Assembly: GCA_964187785.1 (NCBI GenBank)
Contig: OZ076409.1
Span: 12,898,001 to 12,962,000 of the forward strand
DNA from: Amphiscolops sp. MND2022
Taxonomy: Eukaryota
Direction of reading: 5' to 3'
DNA: 64,000 bases
In this document: positions 4,401 to 62,966 of the stretch, one piece after another
Layout: the number at the start of each line of letters is the position of its first letter
How positions within the stretch are numbered: position 1 is the stretch's first letter
Notes under the pieces: model-generated
What the model was told of the DNA's origin: nothing
What the model saw: only the letters and a program-made list of their open reading frames with translations
Database searches by the model: none
Program-made: the position numbers and the translations under genes

Positions 4401-5260
4401 ACAGCACATAATCGTTCGTGCAAATGTAAATTGATTATTCCAATCGCTGGATTATCATGATATTCGTAATTCAATAAGTTATTGAAATTAGAATTCGTTC
4501 CTTGACAGTAACATCATTTTTTACTGATGGAATTTCGCAAATGAAAATTATATGCGGCCTAAATTTCCAAGATAGTTTCTAAACTAACAATTTTTGTTTT
4601 TCGAAATGATTTTTCACGTTGATACTTCTCTGCTTTACCAGGCTATTTGTTCCATCCTGGAGAGTTATCGTCCGTAGTTGTTTGTTTTCGTTGGAGTCCA
4701 GTATCTCTGCCTTTTCATCAGTCATTGACCCAGGATAAGCATTGATAGCCTCATCATGACGGAATACATTTTTGTTCATTCTACTGGTGAGGCTCGATCC
4801 AATAATAAGGTTTCTGGATTCAGCAAGTGATGTCGAAATGGACGAATTTGTAATGGTTGGGTTTGATTGTCTTTCATTTCCGTCACTTCGTTGGTATTTT
4901 TCACTTGGTTGATTTTTTGGTTGCGTAATATGTCACTCAATTTTTTCTCATGGGTATTCAGCCTCATCGAAACATTTTCAAGTCAATTATTGAGTTTGAC
5001 ATATTGTTGGTAATCTTTTTCGAATACGTTGAATTTCTCTTCCGCGTTTCGTTTTTTGAACGTTTTGAAATTGATCATATTTTCCATTGTTTAACAGTGT
5101 TGAAGGTGTATAATTTAACGGTACATCAATAGTTGTTTGACAAACAAGTTGAGTAAATTTTACGATCAAACTTTTGTTGACAAACAAGAAACTGAAAGAT
5201 CAATAAAAGTTGTTAGATTGGCAGCTAAATATGGTAATAGAGTGAAATAAAGCAATTTGA
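1496..5260 (-). mobile_element. Non-LTR retrotransposon (CR1/L2-like LINE), copy 2, decayed: ORF1 (coiled coil + SGNH esterase), 2A leader, APE endonuclease, RT; 3'-truncated
   Basis: APE motifs VLAITETWL, IVLMGDYNID, PTRV in ORF 3204-3908; RT motifs KIFEKLL..QI, IDLSVAFDSVSH, GVLQGTVL in ORFs 2103-2288 and 1831-2139; many frameshifts. Confidence 0.9.
3932..3958 (-). other. 2A-like (StopGo) motif GDIERNPG-P
   Basis: Matches D(V/I)ExNPGP consensus directly upstream of the APE ORF. Confidence 0.85.
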
Positions 5261-17986: not shown

Positions 17987-18233
17987 TGTTATACGGTGTA
18001 ATACCGAACCGATTCCTTCGGTTGACAATGTCAATCAAACTTTGATCTTTTTATAGTCCTAAATGAGATTTATGTTTATATACATTTGTAAACATTGTGC
18101 TAGATCTTTCGTGCTAGAAATACATCATTTAGTTACCGTTGAACTTAGAGAAAAGATCGTTTTGACATTGCTTTCTGTTCGAAGATATATTTTACGAAAC
18201 ACTGTTTTTATTGTCTAACCAAGAAATAGAACA
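17987..18233 (+). repeat. 5' LTR (247 bp, TG...CA)
   Basis: Differs from the 3' LTR at 2 positions by eye. Confidence 0.95.
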
Positions 18234-18247
18234 TGGCGCAGTCAGCA
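18234..18247 (+). promoter_or_regulatory. Primer-binding site, probably tRNA-Ser
   Basis: TGGCGCAGTCAGCA is complementary to a ...UGCUGACUGCG-CCA tRNA 3' end. Confidence 0.7.
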
Positions 18248-21200
18248 AATTGAAATTACCCAAGAATATTTCAACAAAACAAAGAAAATGACAGAAGAAA
18301 GCAAGATTGAAGTACCGAATTTCGAAGCCACATCGGACGGAAAAAAGATATTTACACCGAAACAATGGCTCGAAAGATTCCGGTAATACGCAAAAAGGAA
18401 ACACAAAATGGACATTACCGAACTGATACGGGGAGCCGAGATGACACAAACCGGTTGGTCCGGAAAAGAAACAGAAATCCAAGAAGACTTCATATGGGGA
18501 ATTGGCCCCGAAGCGTTATACCAAATGACCCGGGCAGAATATAAAACCCAACCTGACAAAATAGCGGTAAAAGACCTTATCCGACTATTCAATGAATATT
18601 TCTTACCAAAGCGGAACACCTATCACAATCGCGGAGAATTCTTCTGGACAAGACAAACCGAATCCGAAACACCAGAAGACTTTTGGCGGAGACTTATAGA
18701 AATATAAAAAGAATGTGCATTTGAGGGAATAACAGCCGAAGACTTATTGATTTCAAAATTCATGACCGCAATTACGGACAAGAAACTTCGGGATAAACTA
18801 AAGAAAGAGAAGAAACTCGAACTGAAAAAGACAATCGAAATGATTAAACAGAACACATACGAAAGAAAGGATCGAAAAAACACAATACCGGAAGCTTCAA
18901 TTTTACACCGAGAAAAAGAAATAAAAAGAACCGATACAAAGAATGGAAAGATCCGACACAAGACCGAAGAACAAATTTACAAATGAGAAACCATGCAAAT
19001 TTGGCAACGCACAGAACTGGAACCCTACTCGAAAACTTGAAAACTTTGTAACAACTGCGCGGAAAGAAGGGACACTTCGCACGGGTATGCAGACAAAGAG
19101 ACAACTACAAACGCAAAGTACGCAATGTGACCGAAGACGAGTCAGAAATAATTGGAGGAGAATCCGACGAATCAGAAACAAGCATACACAGAATTGAAAG
19201 AATAAATAGAATTACCGACAGAAACAAATACCTGACAGCCGTGGTGAAAGTAAACGGTATTGAAAAAGAATTTATCGTGGATACCGGATCACCAATTTCA
19301 ATAATGCCCGTGGACGAGAAAATACTGAAACAAACCGAGATACAAAAAAGTGAAACAACGGTATCAAGATGTAAACAAAAATGAAGTGAAATTCCGGGGG
19401 AAAATACCGGCAAACATTGAATATGAGAACAACAAACAAAAAATGCAAATTCTAATTACCGAAAGAAACGACATTACACCATTACTCGGAATGGATTGGA
19501 TGAAAAAATTCAATTTGACAATCGGAAATATCCGAACGGAAGATATCAATCAATCGGAAAAGAGACGAGTGATCGAAAAGTTCCCAGACTTATTCAAGAA
19601 CAACACCACAATAAAAGATACCGAAATAAATATTCAGCTGAAACCGGGACACTACCCGGTGAAACAAAAAGCAAGACCGATCCCATTACATCTACAAGAG
19701 GAGGTCGGGAAAGAACTAGAAAAATTGATAAAAACCGGACATCTGGAAAAGGTAAAACACGTAGATGAAGATTGCTTTGTTTCACCGGTAGTAATTACAG
19801 TAAAAAACGATAAATCGGTCAAAATAGCACTGGACTCAAGAAAACTAAATGACAGCTGTATAAAAATCCGACCACACATGCCGAACATGGAAGAACTACT
19901 GAACCAAATTCCGGTGGAAATCACAAGAGACCGAACAAAAGAACTGAATATCTCGAAAATTGACCTCGACTACGCATACGGCCAAATGAAATTATCAAGA
20001 GACAAGCCGACAATGCGTATTCGCAATAACGGGAGGAAACTTCAGTGGATATTACAGATTTAAAAAAGGGTTTTACGGTCTTGCCGATATCCCCACAATA
20101 TTTCAAGAAAAAATTGACCGAACACTAGAATACTCCACACCGGCATGGCTGGACGACATCATAGTGGTAACCCGGGGTAGCCGGAAAGAACACGAGAAGA
20201 AATTATTCGAGATACTGAAAAAACTGGAGAATGCAGGATACCGAGCAAGCGAAATAAAAACCGAATTCTTCCTAAATAAAACAAAATGGCTGGGACACGA
20301 AATTGACGAAATGGGAATTAAACCAAATAAAGAAAAAGTGAAAGCAATATTGGAATTAAAAGACCCGGAAAATCAGAAACAACTGGAATCATTTCTCGGT
20401 GCCATCCAATATCTCGCAAAATTCTTACCAAGATTATCGGAAAGAACAAAGACTCCGAAAACTCCTCAAGAAAGACTTCTCGTGGAATTGGGGAAAACAG
20501 CAAAATGAAGATTTTGAAAACATAAAGAAAATGCTAACCGAAGAACCTTGCTTGGCACACTATGCAAAGGATCGAGAAAATATAGTGACAACCGACGCAA
20601 GCAAAACCGGACTTGGAATTACATTATGGCAGAAACAGTCGAATGGAGAAATTAAACCGATAGCTTTCGGTAGCAGATACTTGAATGATAGTGAGAAGAA
20701 CTACTCAATCGGAGAACTGGAATTACTTGCAGTTGTCTGGGGTTTAGAAAAGTTCCGATTTTATCTATACGGAAAGAAAGTTTTTCTTTACACAGACCAC
20801 CAAGCGCTCGAACCTTTGATAAAAAGGAACCGGTGTAATAGGCAATACAGCGCAAGACTAACCAGATGGCTAGACCGGCTTGCGCACTTTGATATAGCTA
20901 TTCAACACATGGCAGGAAGTAATTTAAAGTTTACCGACTTCTTAAGTAGAAATCCGGTAGAAAACGCAACAACCGAAGACGTATACGATGAGCAAAACGT
21001 AATTAACATCCTTTCAGAACAAGCCGAGATGTATAGAAAATACGGACAAATATTCGCCGACCAATCACAAAGCGCGACGGAAAGAACAAAAACGACCGAA
21101 ATTAATTCTAACGACCAATCACAGCGGAATAGAACATTCGAGAAAAACCGAGACGTGAACAAAAAGCGCGATCAAACGAAACTCATTGTAAACAATCGAC

Positions 21201-23630
21201 GACAAAAAGCTAAAACGGAAAGTCATACCCGAAAATCAAAATCAAATTTAAATCCAAATTCAAATTCAAACCGAACTTTTTTACAAAATTTACCTGTATT
21301 TAAGACCGAAATGGACCGGGATTACTTTCACTGCGGCGCGACGGCGGAAATAATGGAAATAATCCGGAAAAGGAGAAAGAGCCCGGAGAGACTCAGACTG
21401 GTAGAAAGACGTCTAGAGATTTCCCGACCCGGAACGATGAGAAGAAAATTCGACATGAATGCTCAAAGACAAATATGGGTCCCCTCAAGGCCGAACAAAA
21501 GAAGCAGGGAGGAAATTGCCGAGATAGACGGTGAACTAATGTCACGGGCAAACAGATTTGGGGTAGGATACAGACCCCTGTAAGAAAGGGCCGAAGAAGA
21601 AGAAGAGCAAGAAACGCAACAACCGGAGATATTGGAAGAAGCCGAACCCGAAAGCGAAGGTGAGAGCCAAGTAATCCGGGGTGATAACTTCCCAATCGTC
21701 GACTTGAAGGCATTCAACACCGAAGAGAAGGAAGCCCAATTTATACAAATAAATCAAGTGATCGACAAAATCACCGGAAACAAAAAATTAACCGAAGAAA
21801 CAATTTAAAAAGCCGAGTTCGATTTCATGCTCGATCTCAAAACACTGATAGCAAAGTCAACCACGGACGCGGAGCTGAATAGAGTCAGAGACGCAATGAG
21901 ACGAAATGAAAAGAACACGGCCCCAGAAGCATACCGAACAACATTTGAGAAACTGAGCAACAAGTGGGGACTAACCTTCAACGACGACCGAATAATTGTG
22001 CCAACGGAGCCTGAGAAAGAAGCTACTAGAAACACTGCACTTCGGTCACGCCGGATACACAAAGATGGCAGCGGAAGCCAAAATATTTTGGTGGCCAAAC
22101 ATGCAGAAAGAGATCGAGGAGAAAACAAAAAACTGCGTGGCATGCATGGCATCTGGTAAGAATTTAAAATACCAAACGCGAATTCGGAAAACTGAAATTA
22201 CTAACGGAACCGGGACAAGAAATTCAAATGGACTTTTCCGGTAAACTAAACAACAAAAAATTAAACGGAGAACATCAAATCTTAATCGTGGTAGACAGAT
22301 TCAGTAAATGGCCAACGGCGAAAATCTGTAAATCAGCGGAAACTAAAGAGTCATAAATTTTCTGAAACAAAATTTTAACTTATACGGATTTCCGGAGAAA
22401 ATAAAAACGGACAAAGGCGGAGCGTTTATCTCAAAAGAATACAAAGAATTTTGCGAATCGAAAAACATTGAAATCGAATATAGTACACCGAGAATTCATA
22501 CCGGTACGGGAGCAATAGAACGCGCAATACAAACGCTGAAGAACTTGATTCTTACTAACCTAGAAGAAAACATATGTCTGACCGAATGTGTAAATAGAGT
22601 GTTAAACGTGATGCGCTTTACAATACATACGGGATTGAAAATCACACCATTTGAATTACATCACGGTCGTAAACCGAGAACTGAACTAACGAATGTAATT
22701 AAAGACGGAAGATCATTCCTATCTAACTGGTCGGAATTACCTGTTTCAGCAAGCAACAGACCGAAAATCCCAATCTACATTACCAGAAATGGTGACGGAG
22801 AAGTATCAAACCATCTCGTGATGGCCCGAACCAAAAGCGAGGAAAAAGCGTTAGCCGAAAAATCCCCGAAGAAGAAAAATTCGGTTGGTACATACCCCTT
22901 TCATTTCTTCGAAAAGAACCATAATAAAAAATCATTGGAAGGTAGATTCCAATCAGAATTACAAACCGCAGTAAACGGTACGGAACATACCGTAACCACC
23001 GATACCGGAAAAGTAATCCACCGAAAATTTATTTCGGGTCCAATTGTATTTCAGAAAGAGAAGAAAGCAGCACCGAAAATCGGAGACAACATCACTCCCA
23101 AAAACCGCCATTGCCTCAGAAGAGTCGACGGTAAATATATACAATGGAATGAAATCCTGCGAGACGTACTCAACGGAAAGCTAAAAATCATTCCGAACCC
23201 GAGGACCGGATCAGACTCGGAAAGCGAGGAAGGCGAGATAGACGAGGATGAGAGCGATTTCGAAAATCACGACACCTCCGAAAAAGACGGCTGCTACCGA
23301 CCCATAACAACATCCCCCGAGGATGAATTGAACCTGCATACTGACGGCGAACTAAACACCGGTGAGACAAAATTTAAAATTAATACAACCGAGAACGAAG
23401 GCATAAGACGGTCAAACCGTGAAAGTAAACAACCGAATAGATACGGGGGAGTCACATATACAAAACACTTTTGGACATAATTTTAATATAAAACTTTTTA
23501 CAGGCGAACAATGGAACATCAGGAAAGAGCCCCCGAAACCACTGACGAAACCAGCAGACTTCATCCGGGAGAAAACACCGACTCCAGGACCGTCGAAGCA
23601 ATAAGCTGAAAGAGCTTAGAGTAGAGGGAA

Positions 23631-23877
23631 TTTTATACGGTGTAATACCGAACCGATTCCTTCGGTTGACAATGTCAATCAAACTTTGATCTTTTTATAG
23701 TCCTAAATGAGATTTATGTTTATATACATTTGTAAACATTGTGCTAGATCTTTCGTGCTAGAAATACATCATTTAGTTACCGTTGAACTTAGAGAAAAGA
23801 TCGTTTTGACATTGCTTTCTGTTCGAAGATATATTTTACAAAACACTGTTTTTATTGTCTAACCAAGAAATAGAACA
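23631..23877 (+). repeat. 3' LTR (247 bp; first TG mutated to TT)
   Basis: Preceded by polypurine tract 23618-23630, followed by TSD CTACG. Confidence 0.95.
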
Positions 23878-23967
23878 CTACGAAATAAATAACATCAAAT
23901 ACAAAATTTTTCGATAAAATACTTAGATTTTTCAAAATCTCATACAAATTACCAACCCTGGTTTCAG

Positions 23968-26679: not shown

Positions 26680-27745
26680 TATTAGTCGGCGCTTTTCTAG
26701 TGAAAATGCCCGACTATTACAGTGGCTAGTTTTTAGTCGGCGCATTTTCCTTTAAGGAAAAAAGCCCGACTATTACAGTGGCTAGTTTTTTTTTCTTTTT
26801 TTTCGTCAAACGACAGAGCTCATCGCGTATGTACCACTTTTTACAGAAACTGATAAGTTCACTCAGGCCAAGTTCGACCAATGCAAACTTACTGCAAAGG
26901 GTCCGCCTTTCGTTTTTTACCTTGTTTACGTAATCTACAAAACCGGAAAACTCCAAAGGGTCCCCCTTTTCATTTTTCGGCACTATGCGACGTTTTCGAA
27001 GTTTTTTTTTCAAAAAAAAATTTCAATTTTTTTGTTTCCAGTTGGGAAAAGTGATTTTCCAGTCATATCGAGCATGAAAGGCACACTTTGGGTGTCTCGA
27101 AAGTGTTTTCAAAGCTTTTCATGAATACATTCTGGGCATATTTAGAAAACTGCGCTTTTTGGGCCTTAGATATAGCGCCGACTTTAGACGTTCCCGTCTT
27201 GATTCTTTTTTTCGTCGGACCAAATAGCTCACCCTGTATGTACCACTTTTTGTGCATTATGCACTTTTACCAAAAAAACTCAGTGCTTGATTGTGAACGC
27301 ATCCAAAAGCCTCTAACTTAAAATCCAGAAATACAAAACCCAGAAGGGTCCCCCCTTTCCAATTTTTCGGCACTGAGACTTTCTCTGCCCCTTTTTCGGC
27401 TTTGTGAGACTTTTTTTCGAATTTTTTAAAAGTCTTCAAAGGGTCCTCCCTTCTACTTTTTTGGTGTTTTGCAACTGAATGAATGTTGAAAAAGCCTAAA
27501 GGGCCCCCTCTTACATTTTTCGGCACTATGAGACTGTTAAAAATTCTCATTTTTTCGGAAATTTTTAAATTTTTTTTCGAAATTTTTCAATGTCTCCGAA
27601 AGGTCGCTCCTTCATTTTTTTGATATTTTGCAGCAAACTGGATTTTCAAAAAGCCCAAAGAGGGGGACTTCTACAATTTTAAAAATTTTGCGCTTTTTGA
27701 GCCTTGGATATGGCGCCGACTTTAGACGTTCCCGTCTTGCTTTTA
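26680..27745 (+). mobile_element. Composite of nested or tandem Helentron-like non-autonomous elements in ISOC intron 1
   Basis: Two TTAGTCGGCGC...CCGACTA 5' hairpins (26682, ~26733); two 3' ends GCGCCGACTTT-AGACG-TTCC-CGTCT (~27176-27200, ~27714-27738). Confidence 0.7.
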
Positions 27746-28433
27746 TTCATGTAGCGGATTAGTGAATTAGGTTGCTTGTAAGCGGAAGCGCAAAAGAAGC
27801 GAAAGCAACGTAATATCCGAATAAGCACCGACAGCGAAAGACATGACTGAAATTTCCGTTTATCTGATTGGTCGGAAATTTTTGCTAATTTGGAAACAAA
27901 AAGTGTCCAACCATTACTGTGGCAAATTTTTTGTACTGGGCGTTTCACCCGATACCAGTACAACTGAAAGTGTTGTCTCTTGTGGTAGTTTGAGAAAAGG
28001 GAATAACAAATGGAAATTTCCAAAAGTTCGAAATTGCAGCTTTTGGAAACGTAATTTCGATGAGCCAAAGTTTAATTCCAAGTCATAAGCGATAAGCGAG
28101 GTTTTTGTAAAGCCTAGTTCACTGGTAGCAATTGGTATATGCGATTACGTTGCACTTTCAGAGTGAAGATGGAAAATTCAAAACATTTAGCCCCTCAAAA
28201 AATTAACGAAGCTCGGAGAGTTCCTCATGAATAATCCTACTGACACAGGAAGGACAAAATGCTGAATTAAAATATTGTTGTTGTTTCTGACAGGCGTAAA
28301 ATTTGTGGGAACATTGAAAAGAGGAGAAACCATGATTTAGCTCATATAGATTAGAAGTATTTCTGAAAAAAAAACATGCGATCAAATCTGAATCATTTGC
28401 TGATGTTATAACTTTTTTGTTCAAATGTTTCAG

Positions 28434-35076: not shown

Positions 35077-36107
35077 AAGATAAAATTGGTTTAGCTTGAA
35101 AGCAGGTTGGCCAATCGCCTGAGATAAAATTGTTTCACTTAGAAAGCAGGCTTGACAAATATTCTACGATAGAATTGCTTTCGCTTTGAAAGCAGAACTG
35201 AACATCAGCCGAAGATAAAATTGCTTTCAATTGAAAGCAGGGCTGAGAAATATTCCAAGATAATAATGCTTTACTTTTAAAGCAGAAGTGAAAATCAGCC
35301 TCAGATAAAATTGCTTTAACTTTGAAAGCAGAACTGAAAATTATTTACACAAAATTGAGCCAAAACTAGTGGTGGTTTTTAGAATTACAATTTAGGTTTT
35401 AAAAAAAAGTTGAAATTAAAATTAAAGAGCTAAAGAGTTAAAAAGTTAAGTGAAAGACTTAAAGGAAAATGAAAGATGAGGCAATAAGCACTAAAACAAA
35501 ATATGCTAAGGTTAAAGTTAAAGTTAAGAAAAGGTCTTTGAAAAAATGAGAGCTCCAAAAAAATTTAAAAGTTTAACTGACAAATGTTGCGCCGCGCTGA
35601 TGACAGGGATTGAACCCGTGAATAAAGATTGTAGCGTGGAAGATAAATGCTTTACCAAGTATGAATTTTGCCAAATGAAGAGCTCTGAGAGTTGAAACTT
35701 TGGTCCGTATTTATACCAACTTTGACCGCTTCGTCAACCAATAAAATTCAAACACAATCGTGATTAGCTGACGAGCATGACGTAATATGACGTCAAGTCA
35801 TATGACCTGACAAACGAGATCAATTCGCGTGTGTATTTCGTAGACGAAGCGTCCACGAGAGAATAACGTCATTTGACGTCATGTGGTATGACCAATATTG
35901 AATATGTGCAGTGTCTCAGAACAATGAGGATGAACATGTTCGAGCGTGATCAGAGTTCAGCGCTGGAGGGAAGGTTAAAAGAGTATAAGTTAAACTGTGC
36001 TTGTTATAAAATTAAATGCATGAAGTTTTAAAACAGTTATACAAAGTCTTTTTGGTTTTTCTCAGTTAGTTTCTTTTCATTTTGTTTTCCAAGAGTCGCA
36101 CACGACA
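35077..36107 (-). repeat. 3' LTR, alignable part (may extend left to TGTCGT at 34235)
   Basis: Colinear with 49647-50500; ends ...CACACGACA (TGTCG on -). Confidence 0.8.
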
Positions 36108-42200: not shown

Positions 42201-45200
42201 TCATTCTTTTGTGCCCAAGAACTCACTACTGTTAAGTCGCTAGTGAGTGACCTACAGCAACCAATGTTAAACATGGGTGCTGTCTGTCCTCTTGATTTGG
42301 ATCAGCGACTTATCACTGCTTTGCAGATAGTGACTGACTCGGAAGACGTAGTATGTTTATCGTTTTACCAGTTGTTGTTGTGTTCGTTTCTTGTCGTAGT
42401 TTTATTATTTTGTCTGAGTGGAAGAAAATGTTGGTTGGGTCGTGAATTTTCTTTTTTGCTTTAGTGGTTGTCTGTTTTGACAGTCCATGTGATGCGAAGC
42501 AGGATCAGTTTCCGGGAATTGAAGAATATTCAGCGGCGATCATACGCTGGATTGATTCGTCTGGCGACGAAAAAGGTGTCGTTAGATTGAAATGGGAGAG
42601 TACCAGGCAGCAGTAAATTTTTTTACGTGAACCACTATTTATGAAAGAAAAGGAGGGGCTGTCTTTGAACTGTTTTGTTGTAATGTAGTTTTTAGTCTTT
42701 ATGTCCTTTTCTTTCTAAATATCGTAGTGAGCTATCAGGATGAGAGCGCTTGTGTTTTGCTTTTACTTATGATGTGAGATCAGTAACTTTGTTTATTAGG
42801 AACACGAATAGGCATAGGAGTCAAAGAAAGTATAGGAGTTTTGTTGTGGCGGCAACGGTGAAATCGTTAAAGTTTGATAATTGTGATCATCATTCGTATA
42901 AGTAGCAGGAGATTGAATTCCTGAATCAGCATTAGGCGGAAAAGTAGCGTGGTTTTTTTGATTTTGTTGAAACTTCTCAATAATATCTCGTAGTGGTGAG
43001 AGGATGAAAGCCATAACATCGAGAGAACATTTTTGTTGATCCGAATTGTAGTTCTCACTTTGTGACAGCACTAAATGATCGCAGAAAACACTATCTTCTG
43101 TTATAGGCGCGAAGTTAGTGATTAAAGGAGGGAGTCTTTCCTCATGAGGAAATTTTTCAATGAGGTGATTACGATGAGTAACTTTGATATTTTTTGGAAT
43201 AGCGTCCTCTTGAATTTCGTATGTAGCTATCGTTGTTTGTTTTGTGACTGTAAAAGGGCCTACGCGTAGTTGTTTCAGCTTTTGTGATCTGCTCAAGTCG
43301 GCAATGTGATTTTCTAAGAAAACTTTTTGTCCAATATTGATCGGTCGTCCATGATTGAATCAGTTTCTGTATTCGTGTGCTTTAGAAGTGATTTGGCGGC
43401 ATCGTTGATAGGTTGACGGGAAAATTCGCTTGAAGTCGTTTTCACGAGCAACGAATTCAAGTGAATGTTGTGGTCTGAGTAATCGGTCCAGGGATTTGTT
43501 CGGTAGCGAATTTTCACTGTGTGTATGAGGTTTCAGTCCATCGCAGTAATCGGCTGTGCACTGTTTGTTTTTGTCTTTGATTAATCCGAAATTTAGCCTC
43601 ATCGGAACATGCGGTTTTGTCCCAAAGACTGTTTACTAGGGGGTAAGCCTCGAGATAGATTACACTTGTGTCATGAGCGAATGCAAAGTTCGGTGCTAGT
43701 TCTGTCCAATTGTTACCTGACTCGTTAGTGAAGTTTCTCCAGTATCGTGTGAGGTGTTAGTTTTGTACTTCTACTTTAGCGTTTTTCATGGCGAGTATGT
43801 TGTTCGTGGAGCAAAATATATTCCAAATTCTTTAGTCCAGTTGATGAAATCACTGTTGATGAAAAATGTCATGAGTTTCCATGGGGCGTTTATCCGACTT
43901 CTTTACCCAACTACGTCTTTCTGTAGTACTCGGTCATTGAGTTGTTCTTCAACGAGTCTGTTTACAAAAAGATCAGCAGTTTTTCCAAAATCACTCAATT
44001 TCTGTATTAGATCTTTTGTATCTACTTCTGGGTGTAATTCTGAGTCGATGTTTGCTTTTAGAATTCGTTTTTGGGACTGGTTCTTTCGGATTGATTCGTT
44101 TGCAAAGGAGAAATCCTGTAGGAATCCGGGGTCCAACTGATCGAAGTTTAGTTCAGCTATTTCATAATAGCTGTCGTAGTCATCAACACGTAGTACTTCA
44201 ATTTCGCTGTAAGGATCTTTTTTATGTGCTGTAGTTCGTGAAGTAGGGACAAACGTCTGAACAAAGTCGTTTGTTTTGGTTTATTGTTTTCCGAGTTTGA
44301 AACAGTCTGCCATGTCTTGCATTGTGGTTGAGATTTCGTTATCTTCTATGTAATCTTCAAAATGCTGTTCTTCACCATCGTTCGTCAGGTGTAGAACTTT
44401 TTTGTCATTTCCATGCTGACAGATTATCGGAAAGCAGTCATTGCAAGAAATATCCTGACTATTTTCCTGTGTGATATTGTAGTGCATTTGGTCTCCTTGT
44501 TCATCAAAGAAAGATATTTTTTTCGGTTTGTCTTTGTGCTGTTACTGCAGTTTGTTGATGTCAGACAGTGTTACATTTCGACTTAGTATATCTGGGAAGG
44601 CTAGGTTTGAGCCTGGTGTCCAGATAATCTTCAAGTTATGGAATTTGTTATAATAACTTGGTACTTGAATAACCGATGAGAGAGTTGTCCTTTTCGTCCC
44701 CAAAGGTAGAAGATAGGTTTGTGGTCACAGTAAAGGTAGATCGGAAATGGAGAGCCGACTATGTAGTGTTCATACGTCTGCAGTGCAGATGCAATACCAC
44801 AAAGTTCTCGGTGGAGAGTAGACATCTTTTTTTGCTTTGCCATACACGCGAGAATTGAAAGAAACTATTCGTTTTCCTTGTGGAAAATGTTGAACTTTTA
44901 TACATCCAGTTCCTACGTTTGAAGAGTCAAAATGAATGTGAAAAAGGTACTCAGTTGAGGATCTGCTAGATTTGTATCCTCTGAGACTCTCTCTTTTATC
45001 TGGTTGAAGAGTTCTTCAAGTTTTTTGGTCCATTTGAAATATGTAAACTATTTTATTAGCTCATAGGATGGTTGGCTATCGACGTGTAAATATTTGGTGT
45101 AACAACTATAAAAGCCTAAACATCTGAGTACTTTCTTTACATCTCGTTTGCGTTCAAGAGATTTCAGATTTTTCAAATCCTGGATTCTTTTAGCTACTGG

Positions 45201-47889
45201 TTGTATTCCATCTTGAAATATAACGTAAAGAAAAAGTTTTACTTTTCTCAAGAAGAAGAGCGTTTTGTCTGGTGTTGGTTTCAGTCCACCGTTTCGTAGG
45301 AGCTGGTGATATTCGTGTATAATAGTGAACATTTCGCATTTGGTTTGCGATTGGAGTAGGCTGTCATCAAGGTAGGTGATTGCTTGTTTTTTTTCACCAG
45401 AGGTTCGAAGTTAATTGCAATCATTCGACTGAACCAGTGTGGAAGTCCACAGAGTCCGTAAAATCAAACTTGATAGGTGTTTTGCTTTCCACTTACTATG
45501 AAACTAGATAGTTTCTGAGTTTCTTCGCTGGGAGGTGCTTGGTGGTATGCACAAGAGAGATCACTTGCTGTGAAGTATTTGCCGTTGATTCTCGTCATAA
45601 TCATTTGGACTGGTTCAAGTGGCCAGGAATAGTTTGTCAAGTCGGTAATAGAATTTAGATACCTTGCGTCAATACCAAGTTTAACAGAGTCAACTTTAGG
45701 TGGGAGAATGATTGGATTCACAAAGAGTGAACCGAGTTCATCATCGTCTCCCAACTCTCTAATGATTCCTGTTTTTTGTAATTGTCCCAGGATTTTTTCA
45801 GTTTGTCTTTCATGTGAAGTGGAACTTTACCAGGACGTGTTGTTTGCGATTTCTGAGTTGCTTTTGAGAGTGACGTGAAATTTCTGTTTGGTTTGACCAA
45901 TATCGAATTTGTGCTGTGAGAATACATCTCTGTATTCAATGATCTTATCTATGAGTAAAACAAGTTTTTCGTCTTCTGAGTCAGTGTATTGGAAATCAAA
46001 TTGTTTGATGAATTCTTTTTTCTTAAGGTTGATATTGTAGGCAGTGGTCGATGAGATCATCGTTTGGTTCTTCAGGTCGTAGTATGGAAATATGTTCTTT
46101 GCACGGAGGTTGACAAGACTTAGAGTCCTTTGTAAAGTCTGTTTCTAGTTCGTTCTTTTCTTTCGTCCACTCGTTCGTATAGTTGTCAATTTCATCTTCT
46201 ATGCAAGTTTCTGAGTTTGTAGGCTTGTTAACTGTTTTGCAGTCCAGTTCGTTTCTGGAGATGATTTGTTTGAGAATTCCAGAGTCATTGAATGTATCTT
46301 GTAATGTTTTGAGTACTTCATTCCGAGAGAATTTGTCAAGTCCACAATCATTCTTTGGTATTGTTGTTATGTGAGCGTTGTTGAGTAGAGCGTGGCCTCT
46401 CACATTCTCAAGTGATGTCCGAAGATTCTCCAGAGTAGGTTTTTAAAAAAACTTGTTTTTCGTGACCAGATTGCATATGAATCTATTCGAATCGTTATCC
46501 CAAAAAGGAAAGACTGATCCTACAAAGGCTTTAGATTTTTAGCAAAATACTTGTATTCCATTGATGTGGTTAGTGATAGTTTTGGCAAACCCTTCTCTCA
46601 TCTTTGCCTTTACTCATGTGAAGTGAGCAATGGCTGTTTCTAATTCAAAAATTGTATCATCGTTCCCGTAAATGAAACGTCTCCCATGCTTGAAGTCTGT
46701 TTCATGTGGCAATGTCGAGTGTAGCAGAAAAAATTCATTGTACTGATCGTTTTCAGATAGTATGCAGTCGGCAATTTTAATAAAATCCTGTAATTGGTAT
46801 TTTGTTTGTTAGTCAATCAGTATGTCTAGCTCTAGAGTAACCCAGAGTGTCAAGAGTTATCTGATGATTTTTGTTCTTTTCCATGAGAATTGGTTGGTAT
46901 TCTTCCGACTGAGTACAGAGTACATTCACAAAGTCTAATCCAGAAGCGGCCACTTTTTGATGAGGAATGAAGGTTGTTCCTGGTGCAAAGCTTGTTCGTT
47001 CGTCTTCGGCTCGGTATTTGTAGACACGAGAAGTTTTAGCATCGATGTGTATCTGATGTGGTATTCGTATTGCTTTGATTAGTGACAGGTAAGGGTAAGG
47101 TTCGGTAGCACAGAGGCTGCCGTAGCAAATAGCGATAGGCGTATCTTTGAGTCGTAATGCCAGTAAATCAAAGTGGAGTTTGGAGATGTACTTTCTACAG
47201 AGTTTTATGCCCAATAGATTTGCGGTTTTTGTTTCTGTTATCCAGACTTGTAGTTGAAAGGAATATGGCCCATCAGAATCAAAACTGAAATTGAGTGTAG
47301 TATGACCCAACATTGGTATGATTTTCCGGTGTACGTTCTCGTTTTCTGTTTACTACTCACAACTGTGATTAGTTGAAGGAACTGAGCGATTTCACTTAAA
47401 GTGCGGTAGTTGAAGATAGAGCAAGCTGCTCCAGTATCGACCATGAGTTCGATTTCAAGTCCACTATCTTTATTATTGTCTCCGGCGGGGAAGTAGAAAA
47501 CATTCATATGAAAACGTGGTTTGAAGTTACCTTCTTCATCTGGCTGCAGAGACCTTAGCAGTTTAAAGCAAACTAGTTGGAGATTGAGTTTATCATCTCC
47601 TGAGAGTCGTCATTTATGAATTGTACGTTATTAGAAAGGGCATTAAAATTATTCTAAAGAAAGGTTAGGTTATACTGAGTGTTGGAGTTGTTGTTCTGTC
47701 TCACAGCAACGTTGTAGTTGTTTTCTCCACTGCGCTGATTCTGTCCTGGATTACAGTTGTTCTGATTTTTGAAATTTTGGTTTCTATTATACGGTTGACT
47801 GGAGTTTTTACTAGACCTTTGTTGAGAGTTGGAGTTGTAGTTTTGAGAATCGAAGTTGTTATAGTTTTTCGAACAGAAATGTGGTCCTT

Positions 47890-48886: not shown

Positions 48887-49646
48887 TAATAATTACTGCG
48901 CGATCATTGTGATGTCATGCGCCAACACCCGGCTTGTCTCTTATTGTAGTCATTAGTGAAAGTTGGCTTTCTCTGCTGATTATCTCGATTGTATTGGCGT
49001 TTTCTTTCATCATCAAAAGCTTCAATTTTACAGTATTGTAGAGTGTGTCCATTGCGTCTGCAATAGCCACAGAACCGAGTGGCATTCTGTCTTGATTTGC
49101 TATTGACAACATTGATTCTTATGTTAGCTTGATTCAGAGCATTTACTTGATGTTCTCTCAGAAGTGTTGAAAGTTCTCTGATTTGTTTCTCTAACGAGTC
49201 TAGTTTGGAGTTCTGGTCGTTAGTTGAGTTTGGTACAAACAGTGATCTAACTGAATAGACCTAATCTTTTTTGGCTATGTGGTTTTTAAAATATTCGCAA
49301 GTTGTGTTTGGGTTTTCTATAAGATATTCATGAGCTTTACTTTTAAGTCCTGAAGGTTTTAAACCTCTGATTGTGAAGTCAATGTTTTTCTGATTTCTCA
49401 AGTTTTGTTGAGCGTCTTTTTCATTTTGGTTAGCTCAGGCATCGGTGGGCCATCCTTTATCTACTGTTTGTATGACTCGAAGGTAGAAGTTTCTGATCAA
49501 TTCTTCCTTTCCTCTGACACAGTTTTCAGCAGTTTTTCTGTGTCTATATTTGTCTTTGTCGTCTGAAAGGCAAGTCACGAAAACTGTTGACTTGTATCCA
49601 AGTAGGTAATGGATTCCCTACGTTAAATCCTTAATTCCATATATAT

Positions 49647-50500
49647 CAAGATAAGATTGCCTTGGCTTGAAAGCAGGTTGGAAAATCGTCTAAGCTAAAA
49701 TTGCTTTCGCTTTGAAAGCAGAAGTGAAAATTAGTCAAAGCTAAAATTGCTTTCAAGTGGAAGCAGTGCTGTGAAATATTCTAAGATAATATTGCTTCAC
49801 TTTTAAAGCAGAACTGAAAATTATTCAGACAAAATTGAGCCAAAACTAGTGATGATTTTTCAGGAATTACAACTTAGGATAAGAAAAAGTTAAAGTTAAA
49901 GTTAAAGAGTTAAAGTTAAGAAAAAAGACTTAGAGGAAATTGGAAGCTAAGGCAAAAAGCACTAAGACAAATTAAGGTAAAGTTAAGTTAAGAAAAAGTC
50001 TTCAAAAAATTGAGAGCTCCAAAAACAAAGTTGAAAAGGTTTAACTAACAAATGTTGCGCCGGGCTGATGACAGGGATTGAACCCGTGAATGAAGATTGT
50101 GGAGTTGAAGATGAATGATTTATCAAGTTTGTATTTCGCCAAAAGAAAAGCCCTGAGAGTTGGAAATTTAATCTGTATTCATACTAAATTTGACTGCTTC
50201 GTCAACCAATAAAATTCAATCACAATCGTGATTGGCTGACGAGCATGACGTAATATGACGTCAAGTCATATGATCTGACAAACGATATCATTTCGCGTGT
50301 GTATTTCGTGGACGAATCGCCCACGAGAAAATAACGTCATTTGACGTCATGTTGTGTGACCAAATATGGAATATGTGCAGTGTCTCAGAACAATGGGGGA
50401 TGAACACGTTGGAGCATGAAGTTTTAAAACAAAGTTATAGAAAGTCTTTTTGGTTTTTCTCAGTTAGTTTTTTTTATATTCCAAGAGTTTGCACACGATA
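49647..50500 (-). repeat. 5' LTR, truncated on its inner side and abutting gag
   Basis: Colinear with 35077-36107, lacking ~70 bp present at ~35946-36015; no PBS found. Confidence 0.8.
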
Positions 50501-50733
50501 TCATACATTTCTAAATTTTTAGAGTCTAATTTTTACGCCAGTTTTGACAGATTTTTGTTTCTTCATGAATAATTAACATTAATTAGGTCTGGTTGGTTCA
50601 TTACTAACTATTGCACCGAAATAAAACTCAACCGAATTAGGACAAAATAGTCAAACTTAGTTGAGGTCGAAATTGGAGAAATTTTAAAAAGCATTTTGTT
50701 GAAATTGCATATGACGAAATGTCATACACCCGA

Positions 50734-56479: not shown

Positions 56480-57870
56480 TGATATAGCACAGTTTTTATA
56501 TCAAGTGTTTTTGTGTTTATAAAGCAAATATGTCTTCAACCGAAACTCGGTAGAGGTCAAATGTCGTTGCCGGTGATTGACGGTTGAACCCTCTCCTCTC
56601 TCCGGGTTCTTCTAATACCTGGTTGATGAGCCGATAGGACGCTGGTGGTTTTGGCACCAATTTCGGTTGTGGTGGCTTCTGTGCGGTTCCAAATTTCCAA
56701 AAATTTCCTCCTATGCTATGCCACCGTATCCGACAGAGTCTGTTCGGTTTGTTAACATTTCGGTGAGACCCCCTAATCTTCATTGCAGAAAACTCACCTT
56801 GAAGCATCTCTCCGTCGGTATGTACCTGGATCACGTCGTTTTCAGGATCTCTCCAATTCGGCGCGTATCGTCCATCTTTTTCGGAAAAGCCATATGTTTT
56901 TCCGGCCTCTTCCGGCGTTGCATCTTAGAGGTCATTGTTATGATCATCTTCCGAATCAGTTTCGGTCTGTTTTTTTGTTTTGCACAATCCGCAGTTTTCC
57001 GTTGAGGATGTCCCTTATGATTTCTCTCCACTTTCCGTATTTGCCAGCAAACCCTCGCAGGCAATGTCGTCTCTTTGGGGTTGATCTCGGCTGAGACTGC
57101 GGGCACGGTCTCTCTTCGGTGTTTCTCTCTCGCTCTGAAAAAGTGAGTCCGAAATAATTATTCGATGGATTTTTGTTCCGTATCTATTTTCACGGTACAT
57201 TCGGTTCCGCTTTGTGCAGTTTATATTTTTGATTGAAACCTTCGTTCTAGGGATTTTCGATCATAATTTTTTTCAACAAACTTGAATGGGCATCTATCCG
57301 GGATTTTTTTCTTCTGTGACTTTGCTACCGAAGCCAGTTGTCGCTCCTCTGGTTTTGTTGGGCCATCACCATATGAGTAGTGATTTCCCTTCCCGCGCCT
57401 CGGTCGACATATATCGGTGTCTTGAGCTCGTTAGGTGCTGGAATTGACAATTCTGACCACTCTGATAGAAAGGATTGTCCGCCTTCTATGATATTTGTTA
57501 GTTCCGTTCTTGGTTTTCTACCGTGATGTACTTCAAATAGTGTTTTCATCAGTCCCGTTTGAATTGCAAGTCGCGTTACTTTTTGTTAAACTATTATGGT
57601 CTTTCATAATTGCCAATACCAAGTTGTTCATGGTTTGTATCGCGCTTTCAAATGTTCCGCTTTCCGTATGCGTTTGTGATGGGCAATATTGAATTTGTAA
57701 TTTTCGGGATTTACAAAATTTTTTGTATTCGGCTGAAATGAGAACCCGCTCATTGGATAATTTCTCTGGAATTCAGTATAAATTCGATTGATTTAATAGT
57801 TGGGTAAAAACTACCTTCGTTTCGGATGTTTCACAAATTATTATTTCCATCAGGCTTCGGAAAGTCGGGT
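56480..57870 (-). mobile_element. Gypsy integrase / 3' remnant related to the 17987-23877 provirus
   Basis: FEVHHGRKPRTELTNII.GG.SFLS.WSEL aligns with ORF 22545-23480. Confidence 0.85.
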
Positions 57871-58255
57871 GGATTTTTGTTAGACCCATTGGCATTCGCA
57901 GCCACTTGAAAGATCCGAAAGGTGTGCTGAACGACGTGTAATCCTGACTTTTTGCGTTCATGAAAGAACTGTTCTAATTTCATGCGGATGGTAGTTATCT
58001 GCAATGGCGGCCGTACTAGCACAGGTCCAAAATGGTGAGGAGGGAGCCATTTGCTATGCTTCTAGAGCACGTTCGAAATCTTAGATGAACTATTCAGCTA
58101 CAAAACGGGTACTCCTCGGTGTCGTTCGTTCTTTTCACACGACATTTCAAGCACTGCCTCCTTGGTAGAAATCTCGTACTCCGCACATATCGTAGTGCAC
58201 TGCGTTTGCTACATGTCTTCAAGGATCCAGGGGGTCTGGTTGATCGATAACACGA
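57870..58255 (-). mobile_element. Inverted Gypsy RT fragment
   Basis: YTSFSTPFGSFKWLRMPMGL RT motif in ORF 57773-57961. Confidence 0.7.
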
Positions 58256-58559
58256 AAAACTTGCTCAGTGTTGTGGAACACCGACCTGAAAAGTCAATTT
58301 GGCATATTGACGGCCCATCACGAAAACCCAATTGTGCCACAGGAGCCACTTCAGAAGTGCACAACGAGATCTTGAATCGTTGGCCAATCCTTGTCCTGCT
58401 GGATGTTGCAACCATCCAGTATTTCCGAAGGACACAATCCGCTGAAATCACAAATAAACTCACCAAAACGTCTTCGAGGGATCACGAGGAACAACCTGCA
58501 AGTCACACCAGGTCAGATGAGGTTGGAAACACGTGGCATAAATTACGTGGAGAAACAAC

Positions 58560-58955
58560 ATGTGACTTGTTCATCTCAACAGACACTGGCAAATTGTGTT
58601 TCTGCCGATTTCAAGATGAGTGCGGGCAATGGTCGCTCCAGCAAACGGAAATACTACCCTACAAAATATCCAAGGAGTTTGAAGTACTATGACGTTCCCT
58701 TGTGGACACAAACTATCCCTGATCCGGAGCGCTTCATTTATTATCAAGTGACAAACGAACGATTTGACAATAAGTTGCCATACTCGGCCTTGAGCGCACC
58801 CCTAGAACGCATGCGTGAACATGCAGAAGTGCATGGAGTGAAACACCTTAGTTTGCCTCAAATCGCATGTGGACTAGATAACTTAGAATGGCCCCTGGTG
58901 CGAGAAGGTTTGCAGGCGATCTTCGACTCGCCAAAAGTCAGGCACAGTGTATATC
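58560..58955 (+). pseudogene. TARG1/OARD1 (Poa1p-like) macrodomain within retrotransposon pol
   Basis: DLF..(frameshift)LANCVSADFKMSAG..RFIYYQVT..PYSAL...LERMREHAEVHGVKHLSLPQIACGLDNLEWPLV...IF. Confidence 0.85.
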
Positions 58956-58979
58956 AACAAACCCCCAGGACCTGACAAA

Positions 58980-59216
58980 AAACGACCACAATCCTGACAG
59001 CGGGACTCTTCAGTCTCGCCGGCTTTCGCAAAAGCTCACAAAAGTTTCTGGCTGAAACAGGGATTCGAACCCATGACCGCTGTGTTCCCTGTAAACCGAT
59101 TAAAGTCTACTAAAAAATTACATTCAGGGTGAGGTCCGTGATCTGACGAAAAAAAGAAAACCGATATCACCAGTAATAGTCGGACACTTTTCACTAGAAC
59201 AGCGCTGACTAAAAAC
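58980..59216 (-). mobile_element. Short Helentron-like element with tRNA B-box-like segment
   Basis: TAGTCGGACAC..GCGCTGACTAAAAA end hairpin; GGGATTCGAACCC at ~59060-59072. Confidence 0.55.
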
Positions 59217-62200
59217 ATACGTGATGCGCGAGTGACTGATGAATCTTTACAGGAAGTACGTAGATGTTTAGTGCGTGGTCGACTGCCCGCAACAACGATT
59301 GACAAGTAAGCCCTGAGTTGGCTTGCAAACTCTATAACCAGTTTTCCAGACTTTAAATATGTCAGAATGTCATCGGTGGGCAATTTGAACAGGCCGCCGG
59401 TGCATTGCCGTACCTCCAGCAAATAGTGCCAGCAGCACTTCTTGATCAAATGTTGACTTCCATTTATAGGTCGACAACTGGAGGTCATCCCGGAACGGTA
59501 AATTTCTCGGTAAAAGTCAAACCGTGCTTCGGGTGGCCTGAGTTCGGAGAAGATATCCAATTGTTTGTGAAGTGTTGTTTAGAAAGCCAGAAGAGACGCC
59601 ACCCGAGCAAACACATCGCCACTTCCTAGTCACTTGAAACCGAGCTACACTTTCAATCACTTCGGTCGGAACTTCATGGTCAGTTACCTTCATCTCGAAA
59701 AAACGAACGACTCTCCTCATTAATGACCACTTTACCAAATGGCATGAAGCCATACCTTTATTGAACCAGCGCGCAACTAATCGGGAATTGGGTTCGTAGG
59801 TTGTCCTTGTAGCATACCTAGTGATCAAGGTTGAAACATCGAAGCCAAAATGTTCAAAGAGACCCTGCAGCTCCTGGAAATTTACAAGTTCAGGACCGCG
59901 TCTTTCCAGCTGCAATCACAATCCGTCAAGGAAAGGATGAACCGAATTCTACAGAACATGGTGAATTAACCATGTTCGTGAATGAACCAAAAGCGAAGTG
60001 GGCATTTCAGTTGCCGTATGTCATGATGGCCTATCAGTCGTCAGTACACAAATCAACTGGCAATTCCCACAGTTTTGGGTGCAAGTAAGAGGACACTCTT
60101 TGCCCATCGATGTCATGTAGTCAAGCCCGGAACAGCCGTCTATCAGCGTGGACGACTTCGTATATAACCACCAGAAAGCCTTTCAACTCGGTTTTTCGAG
60201 AACCACCAGAATCGAGCTGGTTCGCGTCAATGTATAAAAACCCAGAGATGGCGAAATTCTCTACACAATCAAAGAGTATATGGCCCATTGTATCAAGGCG
60301 GTCAGAATGTCTTGTAACACAGTGCGCCTGTGCCGGTTTGCCAGACAGCTAAATCGTTCTCGCCATGGCAAGTTTCTCACGCCATCCTTCAATGACTCAA
60401 AAATGTCACACACTAAATTTACAAAACAGCTTAAACGACTGACCAACCTAATGTTCCAACCCGAAACTTTACTGATTCCTAGTACACCCGACGGCGATCA
60501 TAGCAATTCTATGTTTTTCCAACAGTGTCCCGTATTTCTTCCACCAACAACTGGGCCGTTGCATACACCGAATCCTAACAATGACATCGGCTTCTCCTGC
60601 TTCCGCTCAACTTCCGGGCACTTCTTAGCTGACAATGAAATTCGGCGGGAAATGAAACTTTATCCAGCAGGCCGTCCTGGTTTTGAGGCGGTAGTATCCT
60701 AAATTCAATTTAAATTCGAGGTAACTATGTATTTTTGTAAGTGTAAACACTAATCATGTTTAGCTTCCATCGAAATGGCTCCATCCTTGAATAAAGTCAT
60801 CCCTACGGTTAGTACCGCTGAATTTCATGCCTATTCAATGGGCGAAGCCCGGCAATCAGTTCTCGGCAGCTTAAGAATGGAGCTGGTGGAATTGCCAAAT
60901 GTTGAACAAGTGACACACGAATTTCTGGATGCGTTGTCGAAACCAATATCGCATTACTATTGTTCGATTACTCCAGTCAATTCCGCTGGGCTAGAGTCCT
61001 ATCTGCGCACGAAGACAGTCATTTCACGTCTACAGTGTCTATGTCTTTGTCCTTGCAAACCTTCTCGATAACGCCGGTCGTTTCATTCAAATCATTGATA
61101 AAGCCGACGATTACCAAAATCCTGATCCTACGTTTTTATACATAACTCAAAACAAAATCCAAGCTCTTGGGTCGCTCGCACGAGAAACAATCAATCAATC
61201 AATCGCTAATAACTGGAACCTCACTGCACCTGATGCTCCTTGTCTCTGTCCACGTGTTTATCCGATTGTGCTAGGTAATCAGTCGTATGAAACAAAAACC
61301 TAAATGTTTTTTTTTGCTGTCTCTCTTTCATTGTCGGAATATGTGCCATTTTTAGCAAACTGGAACCCCTCAACTCGTTGATGATATTGGACAGCTTGTG
61401 AGTTAGTTAGAAGTTTCGCAACGCTTGCGTCGGTGTTTGTCTCACCACTCCCGTTTTGGTGTATAACTGATTTGGGGAGGTTCGTCGAACTTCCCCTCTG
61501 TGGCTTGGATCAACCATATAGTATGAATATTCTTAGACTGTCACTAGTATCCCAATCTGCCTCTCAAGACAGTTAGTGTAATCAAAAGGGTCGTCGTCTC
61601 CTAGTTGTTCACGCATAACAACAACCGTACATGAACTCGTCACAGTCAATGTATCCTAGTTGTGCCTCAAATTCAGCTGGTGTAATAAAACATATTCCCA
61701 GGTATCATAATGGTATCACTACCGCAACTATGGGTTTTCCTTTAACACCTCATAATGGTATTATTGATCATCAGTAATGCATGAGGTAGTGGTGTAGTAC
61801 TTTCCGTAAAGAAAGAGTTAGCATAGTTGTTCTTCATGCGCAAATTCCAAGCCACTGCAGAACGTCCGGCATGCTTTATTCTCTCCGGTGACAGGATACA
61901 TGATCCTTCCCGAGGACATAAAGGACGAATTTTGGAAGTGATGGACTACAGTGCATCATCTCGAGTGATCCATCACTGGAAAGAATGCCCAAGAAATCTG
62001 GCTGCCCCCATCTCTCGATACTGCCGTAGAGACAGAGTGTAATGACATGGAATTCAAACCACTCACTCGCGACTACTCTTTTCCAATCCCCCCAGTGCAA
62101 CCTGACACCGTGGATCTGGCCGTAGAGGCCTTCATGGAAGCAGAAGAGCGCCTGCATCTTGTCGCAGAAGAATTCGGCTCGGTCGAACTTCATCTTTGAT

Positions 62201-62966
62201 TTCATTCAGGCGAGTGTGGAGATGGGCCGCAACTTCGAAAAGGCCTTCACGGATCTGGGAGCACACATGAAAGAGCTGCGTGACCGGGTGCATTCTTTCA
62301 GAGAATGAAGTGCTCTTGAGTCGCACCTTCGAACAAACAGAAAAACTTAAAGTTACGGGTAGAGGATGCGACTGTGTCGCAGCACAAACTCACTGCGCCC
62401 ATGTTAAAACCTCAATTGTCCAAGTACCCAGTAGACCTTGATTCTTTAGCTCACTTTGTTTTGTTTGGTTTTTTGGGCTGCAAACCAACAAAGGATGCAG
62501 AACTACTTCTCCAACATGCCCATCATTTAAAGCTACTAATACACACGGATCAAATTCCCACTGTCACACGAAGTGGGTCAGCTGATTCTCCCATTGTCAA
62601 GGAGGCCCGACGTATCCTTACTGATGGATCACTAAATAAAGTATACCGCTGTGGCGGTTTGCAGGATGTGTGTCGTGTTCGACGCAGCCTAAGAACATGT
62701 ATGGACTGTGATCACTTGTTTGGCGACCGGACATCTACTTAGGTGCACGGACGCAACTTTCTAGGAGAAGTGTGCTGTAGCGGGCCAGCAGCGAGTAGCG
62801 AAATGAAACAGATGCAAGCTCAGTTATTTACAAGTGAAACTTCTCTGAATTTTTCTTTTCTATAGTTGAGATTTCTGTATAATGATGTTTCATTTAGGAG
62901 CAGCACTTCATTCTCTCGGTGTTTTCTTTATTATTTATACACTAAGGATGCTTTTATTTAAATGTA

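Follow-up and report, generated by a model that had tools for sequence, protein, structure and literature searches.

Our analysis of the window, by which we mean the whole 64,000-nucleotide stretch of Amphiscolops sp. DNA, revealed two macrodomains of the TARG1/OARD1 class, each lying within a decayed pol gene of a retrotransposon. The copy studied in most detail belongs to what we call lineage A, represented by the intact protein P0002, and the other to lineage B. The features concerned are the following.

42695–47507, minus strand: decayed lineage-B pol (tblastn with P0083, P0084 and P0243, and Pfam matches of these proteins)
46245–46679, minus strand: second TARG1-class macrodomain, lineage B, with three stops and the Lys and Asp positions kept (tblastn; PDB TARG1, E = 3e-11)
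57836–57961, minus strand: inverted reverse transcriptase (RT) fragment of the P0002 family (P0002 413–454, 76% identity, E = 2e-15)
58001–58330 (about), plus strand: RNase H remnant of a Ty3/gypsy pol, with stops and frameshifts (tblastn with P0002 about 619–730, frames +2, +3 and +1)
58535–58960, plus strand: decayed TARG1/OARD1-class macrodomain, lineage A (phmmer against PDB TARG1, E = 2.6e-18; sibling comparison, residues and frames)
58972–59205, no strand: spacer from macrodomain to integrase, 233 bases here against 21 codons in P0002
59205–60431, plus strand: broken integrase remnant with N-terminal part, H2C2 zinc finger, core and C-terminal part (tblastn with P0002 970–1381)

The macrodomain motifs quoted in an earlier note on this DNA lie inside a stop-free plus-strand frame, 58376–58975. 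In a single-sequence search of the PDB, which constitutes an independent test of its class, residues 4–142 of the translated stretch 58529–58972 matched human TARG1 (C6orf130; PDB 4j5q, 4j5r, 2eee, 2l8r and 2lgr) with E-values of 2.6e-18 to 3.6e-18. The alignment runs from end to end with one two-residue gap, so the domain is without an intron, as the note had stated, and this match, taken with that of the integrase H2C2 zinc finger (about 59426–59602; PF17921, E = 9.1e-8), confirms the placement it gave, in pol between RNase H and the zinc finger. Pfam produced no match on either macrodomain of the window. A profile search of the window returned two matches, of 122 and 114 bits, the best of 10 shuffles reaching 2.2 bits, a control with some circularity, as the window's own domains were among the profile seeds.

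The window copy is 57% identical to residues 808–949 of its intact sibling P0002. Alignment of the key residues agrees with what had been read from the letters, namely that the GLD aspartate is present and that asparagine occupies the catalytic lysine position; the conserved pocket histidine and the GIA loop are changed as well. The DLF motif of the first strand is found in a different frame (about 58555–58590), and neither the RNase H nor the integrase remnant shares the frame of the domain. The copy is therefore more damaged than the description "nearly complete" suggests. Without the catalytic dyad and the intact frame of its class, the copy at 58535–58960 is a dead, rearranged relic.

Gag, protease and most of the RT were not found adjoining this copy, the lone RT piece being inverted, and a repeat search and self-blastn detected no LTR pair around 57.8–60.4 kb; the copy is truncated and rearranged. 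A weak plus-strand match to P0002 567–618 over 57845–58000 shares positions with this inverted piece, and we treated it as an extension of the alignment. Directly beside that piece lies a minus-strand integrase-region fragment (57115–57730), 67–69% like 22437–23077 of a third element type, and the 57–58 kb area is a nest of rearranged element fragments. The spacer is about 170 bases longer than in P0002, and within it 59111–59210 resembles a dispersed host repeat (blastn matches at 26684–27919). The spacer also holds, at about 59055–59095 on the minus strand, a short tRNA T-loop/B-box-like motif, possibly a SINE remnant; ARAGORN found no tRNA and Rfam nothing relevant at 56–64 kb, and the motif was not called. 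Downstream of the integrase remnant, 60750–62750 (plus strand) has a higher GC content and several broken ORF-like pieces, two of which gave no Pfam match; this region may be a further ORF of the macrodomain element, or a different element.

The macrodomain at 46245–46679 had been overlooked in the earlier reading of the window. It was also matched by tblastn with P0002 (46251–46652, minus strand) and is 74% identical to P0084. The pol around it comprises, in order, protease (about 47250–47507), macrodomain, RT (about 44646–46018), RNase H and integrase (about 42695–43869), with a gag zinc knuckle, identified by eye, upstream at about 49030–49071. Lineage B thus has its domain between protease and RT, unlike lineage A, where it lies between RNase H and integrase. 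An 80% identical pair of 0.8-kb repeats (35122–35949 and 49649–50502), 14.5 kb apart, brackets the lineage-B element, and a tandem duplication of roughly 3.47 kb is present at the window start (32–4940). A third gypsy element, at 17989–23900, has RT, RNase H and integrase remnants at 19.5–22.7 kb on the plus strand and is flanked by a 268-base direct repeat pair of 96% identity, probably its LTRs. Neither tblastn nor the profile search of the window found a TARG1-class domain in this element (19.5–22.7 kb), and for that reason we regard the domain as dispensable for gypsy elements in general.

Intact relatives and the class of the domain

What does the element look like in its intact form? A search of longer proteins with the window domain gave one match among 454 candidates, P0002 (1592 amino acids), in which protease, RT, RNase H, macrodomain and integrase follow one another in a single frame, according to Pfam and the TARG1-class match. 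The best PDB match of P0002 is Ty3-G Gag-Pol (E = 1.4e-109), and P0002 and its relatives have, by Pfam, a Ty3-like RT and the protease–RT–RNase H–integrase order of Ty3/gypsy (Metaviridae) Pol, as in Ty3-G (7q5b, 4ol8). Its cluster has 16 members; among the 15 listed, three others are 1592 amino acids long and 99.5–99.7% identical, which points to a recent movement of the family with the domain aboard. Searching with the P0002 region returned eight clusters from 32 candidates (clustered at 90% identity), all with the same layout and with RTs 75–85% identical; they contain 16, 7, 8, 60, 219, 83, 1 and 1 member sequences, numbers that include fragments and are not copy counts. Among 75 listed members of six clusters, all 34 that span RNase H to integrase carry the domain, a count that is biased because the clusters themselves were found via the domain. 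The earlier note had named absence from sibling elements as a refutation of its reading, and these siblings have the domain.

A lineage-B search gave 11 matches among 157 candidates, including the P0084 cluster with its 415 member sequences, and in two of these relatives, P0246 and P0249, a single frame runs through protease, macrodomain, RT and RNase H. The RT–RNase H part of lineage B is only about 30% identical to that of lineage A. Positions equivalent to Lys84 and Asp125 of human TARG1 were assigned via the PDB alignment of the window domain, and this dyad is kept in eight of eight lineage-A representatives. Forty-eight of 77 lineage-A proteins have a domain match; 45 of these have a residue at the lysine column, which is lysine in 44 and Asp in one (three gaps), and aspartate is present in 43 of 43 at its own column (five gaps); the corresponding numbers for lineage B are 17 matches in 25 proteins, lysine in 17 of 17 and aspartate in 16 of 16 with a residue, and for further Pol-linked or candidate rows the dyad in 10 of 10, many of the rows being near-copies.

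Mean pairwise identity among the eight lineage-A proteins is 77% for RT, 80% for RNase H and 73% for the integrase core, then 59% for the N-terminal part of integrase, 58% for protease and 57% for the macrodomain, and falls to 26% and 15% in the linkers, the former being 25–91 residues long. The macrodomain evolves more quickly than RT, RNase H and the core of integrase (57% versus 73–80%), which fits conflict or merely weaker constraint; no sign of unusually fast evolution was seen in it. Its length stays at 142–144 residues while the linkers drift. A lack of selection on the catalytic residues, the other refutation named beforehand, is at odds with the conserved dyad and with the identity of the domain relative to that of the linkers. 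Comparison of these proteins supports the view of the macrodomain as a stable, selected part of Pol.

To which class does it belong? The domain is closer to TARG1 than to other macrodomains in single-sequence and profile searches alike, with E = 1.5e-67 for TARG1 and 3e-16 for DarG in the profile comparison; the profile includes cellular TARG1-like rows, and the single-sequence searches are the unbiased test. Evidence on the fold comes from a sibling, P0009, rather than from the window copy. Its intact domain is predicted with pLDDT mostly above 90 over residues 11–150, as a compact macro fold without the MacroD extensions (residues about 5–146, TM 0.86 by target length), and the best Foldseek match of the model is the TARG1–ADP-ribose complex 4j5s (E = 8.9e-15; DarG, 1e-9). 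Intact siblings also show the dyad (eight of eight in lineage A, and lineage B), and they resemble human TARG1/OARD1/C6orf130 (4j5q, 4j5r, 4j5s, 2l8r) in sequence class, predicted fold, dyad and the TK-G-G-D motif described in PMC8120803. TARG1 is a free cellular protein, whereas here a domain of about 40% sequence identity appears inside a retrotransposon polyprotein.

DarG and DarG2 (5m31, 5m3i, 7omu; NF048014) share a related ALC1-like macrodomain fold and the catalytic lysine. As described in PMC9411070, PMC8120803 and PMC10789625, TARG1 catalysis proceeds via Lys84 and Asp125 and that of DarG via the lysine only; DarG lacks the dyad aspartate in the account of PMC9411070, and the element domains have it. 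NF048014 scores 17.7 and 43.9 bits here, against a cut-off of 250, and no DarT partner was seen beside the element domains, whose neighbors are pol domains. Judged from sequence and predicted fold, the domain is of the TARG1 class and not of the DarG class; of the label "TARG1/DarG-like" used in the earlier note, only the first half is retained.

In trees of 143 columns, with bootstraps not fully settled, the lineage-A domain of the window is sister to P0002 (support 100/93) and the lineage-A domains form one group (100/100). By AU test, one clade for all 20 element-borne domains is not rejected (p = 0.283), nor is a grouping of lineages A and B (p = 0.507) or one clade for all RNase H–macrodomain–integrase types (p = 0.316). 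Many independent captures are not established, since the AU tests are compatible with a single clade (p = 0.28–0.51).

Placements in other elements and in viruses

A search of representatives returned 3369 matches to E = 0.001, of which the best 150 were taken; the Pfam scan covered the 63 of these with at least 230 residues, and some top representatives score on integrase because the 278-position profile also spans integrase-side columns. P0144, P0217 and the cluster mate P0255 are Pols of the RNase H–macrodomain–integrase type, with RTs 41–45% identical to lineage A. In P0110, a gypsy Pol, the macrodomain comes after the integrase; it does so in P0228 as well, followed there by a weak Tpt1/KptA-like match (E = 3e-6). 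Integrase, macrodomain and this Tpt1/KptA-like part, which has an ADP-ribosyltransferase fold, occupy P0228 residues 1171–1513, and the active-site motif looks altered by eye; from its sequence, P0228 could possibly pair a writer fold and an eraser in one element. P0105 has a protease and then the macrodomain, and P0173 a weak integrase C-terminal match and then the macrodomain. The domains of these two proteins are sister to lineages A and B, which suggests that the domain was shuffled between positions. At the level of sequence, no fewer than three Pol positions hold the domain, in lineages whose RTs are 30–45% identical, the commonest placement seen being next to integrase. In most Pols examined it falls below the Pfam gathering score.

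Three of six metagenome loci (L001, L003 and L005) are errantivirus-like gag–pol–ORF3 elements with the RNase H–macrodomain–integrase order, and the third ORF of L001 is an envelope of the baculovirus F type. Synonymous sites among the three are near saturation (pS 0.68–0.82), and dN is 0.27–0.48 for the macrodomain, 0.09–0.23 for RT and 0.61–0.88 for the linker; where dS was computable, dN/dS is about 0.23 and 0.08, values that concern these env-type loci, a lineage other than the window's. L005 has lost the aspartate and the pocket histidine. L004 (217–6453) is a picorna-like virus with the macrodomain after the RdRP, at the end of the non-structural polyprotein, and with the dyad kept; L006 (13–6411) has the same layout and domain, as judged by domain comparison rather than Pfam. 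L007–L010 are likewise picorna-like RNA viruses with a TARG1-class macrodomain after the RdRP. The known viral macrodomains mostly belong to the MacroD class. Among Atlas clusters, the nearest consist for the most part of phage OARD1-like proteins, which is a lead only. From these sequences, it appears that the TARG1-class domain is recurrently carried by mobile elements. Cellular-type TARG1-like domains are fused to DNA ligase III, PNKP, uracil-DNA glycosylase, NADAR and an HMG box (P0196, P0155, P0140, P0168, P0234, P0143, P0232 and P0194). P0132, a single ORF of 2653 amino acids with three full-length near-copies, combines TARG1-class and SWIB/MDM2 domains with no other Pfam match, and is perhaps another mobile element.

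Macro domains in LTR reverse-transcribing elements have a precedent in the teleost epsilon-like endogenous retroviruses (Basta et al. 2009, cited in PMC4977317). By the description in that review, the fish cases are vertebrate retroviruses with the domain in additional ORFs, whereas here it is of the TARG1 class and in frame with a Ty3/gypsy Pol. In errantiviruses, accessory folds are known from the "bridge" that links RNase H to integrase, and are named "pseudo RNase H" or "mini" domains in PMC13524379. The main text of that paper does not mention macro or ADP, and its supplements do so only within species names; the macrodomain of L001, L003 and L005 might be its unnamed "pseudo domain". We found no description of a TARG1-class domain in a Ty3/gypsy Pol in the full-text literature searched, most subscription journals and Repbase notes lying outside it. 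The domain may have escaped discussion because Pfam-based annotation misses it.

Possible roles of the proposed Pol-borne ADP-ribose eraser

The intact siblings display an in-frame fusion with conserved dyad and pocket motifs, and other lineages display other placements. In conjunction with the conservation described above, we propose that a Ty3/gypsy lineage probably took a TARG1-class ADP-ribosyl hydrolase into its Pol, where purifying selection would have maintained it as a Pol-borne eraser of ADP-ribose. Ty3/gypsy Pol is packaged and then cut into protease, RT–RNase H and integrase. Since Pol is packaged, the domain as part of it would travel in the particle and remain close to the RNA genome, to the cDNA as it is made and to the integration complex, whether cut free or still joined to RT–RNase H or integrase. 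Host transferases would put ADP-ribose on element RNA, on single-stranded or nicked cDNA, or on acidic residues of Pol or Gag, and the domain, if it shares TARG1 chemistry, would strip those marks, allowing reverse transcription and integration to be completed. TARG1 is able to take ADP-ribose off Glu/Asp residues, DNA and the bases of RNA (PMC9411070; PMC11102865; bioRxiv 10.64898/2026.03.31.715305), its substrates including DNA modified by PARP1 at nicks or at single-stranded ends (PMC11102865) and RNA with base-linked ADP-ribose (bioRxiv 10.64898/2026.03.31.715305). We favor nucleic acids as the targets. We give roughly equal weight to the host marks being a dedicated defense and to their being a general DNA-break response. 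A dedicated, PARP-type restriction of retrotransposons in this host would be plausible; repair-linked clean-up fits as well, because PARP2 supports LINE-1 integration (PMC11140550) and TARG1 acts at nicks (PMC11102865).

Why would an element carry such an eraser? One version of our proposal, a possibility that we hold tentatively, is that antiviral-type mono-ADP-ribosyltransferases hit element RNA, cDNA and proteins and that the domain is the answer, comparable to viral macrodomains acting against PARPs and phage macrodomains against DarT. The patchy, recurrent presence of the domain in mobile elements, its several positions in Pol and the phage-rich clusters are consistent with this, and its presence in RNA viruses, which have no DNA stage, also argues for it. 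Coronavirus Mac1 and alphavirus nsP3 are likewise ADP-ribose erasers within a viral-type polyprotein; they match the fold weakly and, according to PMC10789625, are of the MacroD class with another catalytic mechanism. A counter-defense role has been shown for Mac1 and nsP3, whereas for the element domain it is one that we infer. PARP13/ZAP limits the mobility of LINE and Alu elements, and marks set by PARPs are reversed by viral macrodomains (PMC5322727); mono-ADP-ribosylation of KAP1 by SIRT6 silences L1 (PMC4695847); against this, ZAP is catalytically inactive (PMC5322727), and the cited evidence comes from mammals and non-LTR elements.

In a second version, which we consider rather unlikely, nicks, gaps and single-stranded ends arising during integration and reverse transcription trigger PARP1/2-type marks, and the domain clears these on the spot, which lets gap filling and ligation run to completion; the element would then exploit or tidy a housekeeping response rather than evade immunity. 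The fusion of cellular TARG1-like domains to DNA ligase III, PNKP and uracil-DNA glycosylase points in this direction, as do the clearance by TARG1 of PARP1-made DNA marks at unligated Okazaki fragments and 3' overhangs (PMC11102865), the recruitment of PARP2 to LINE-1 integration, which it helps (PMC11140550), and the most frequent placement, adjoining integrase. The lineage-B domain, however, lies away from integrase, the host presumably has nuclear erasers of its own, and RNA viruses with the domain are not explained.

Alternatively, the domain could bind ADP-ribosylated chromatin or damage sites and steer integration like the chromodomains of chromoviruses, with catalysis secondary. Frequent fusion next to integrase would suit such a module, including fusions on its C-terminal side, on which targeting domains are located (P0110, P0228), and transposable elements often carry chromatin readers (bioRxiv 10.1101/2021.11.30.470311); L005, moreover, keeps its domain without the aspartate. 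We consider this role improbable, because the dyad is almost invariant, beyond the apparent need of binding alone, and the protease/RT placement in lineage B would separate the domain from integrase. That the domain is a passenger, either a processed copy of host OARD1 that landed in a single element or a neutral sequence carried along in frame, agrees with an intronless, dead window copy but is very improbable given a domain that is in frame in eight families with RTs 75–85% identical, conserved in its dyad, constant in length beside drifting linkers and united in one well supported lineage-A group (100/100), and a one-off processed pseudogene is excluded in practice by the intact in-frame siblings with a conserved domain.

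Returning to the Pol-borne eraser, we may speculate further, with more doubt than confidence, that invertebrates and other eukaryotes widely defend themselves against LTR retrotransposons by ADP-ribosylating retroelement RNA or cDNA, a defense so far unrecognized, and that Ty3/gypsy lineages, env-bearing errantiviruses among them, have responded repeatedly by placing a TARG1-class eraser in Pol, at three or more positions, as an antidote carried in the particle. This would be the eukaryotic equivalent of the conflict between DarTG and phage. TARG1 is a known eraser of nucleic-acid ADP-ribosylation, a modification whose physiological purpose in animals is an open question. That a domain of this class, with its catalytic dyad conserved, is kept in Pol by several gypsy lineages distant from one another, two of which occur in this single 64-kb window, suggests that its natural substrates are retrotransposon intermediates. 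The element domains would be small, testable enzymes, and elements with and without the domain offer a natural comparison. Its presence in Pol hints that ADP-ribose tags may hinder mobile DNA.
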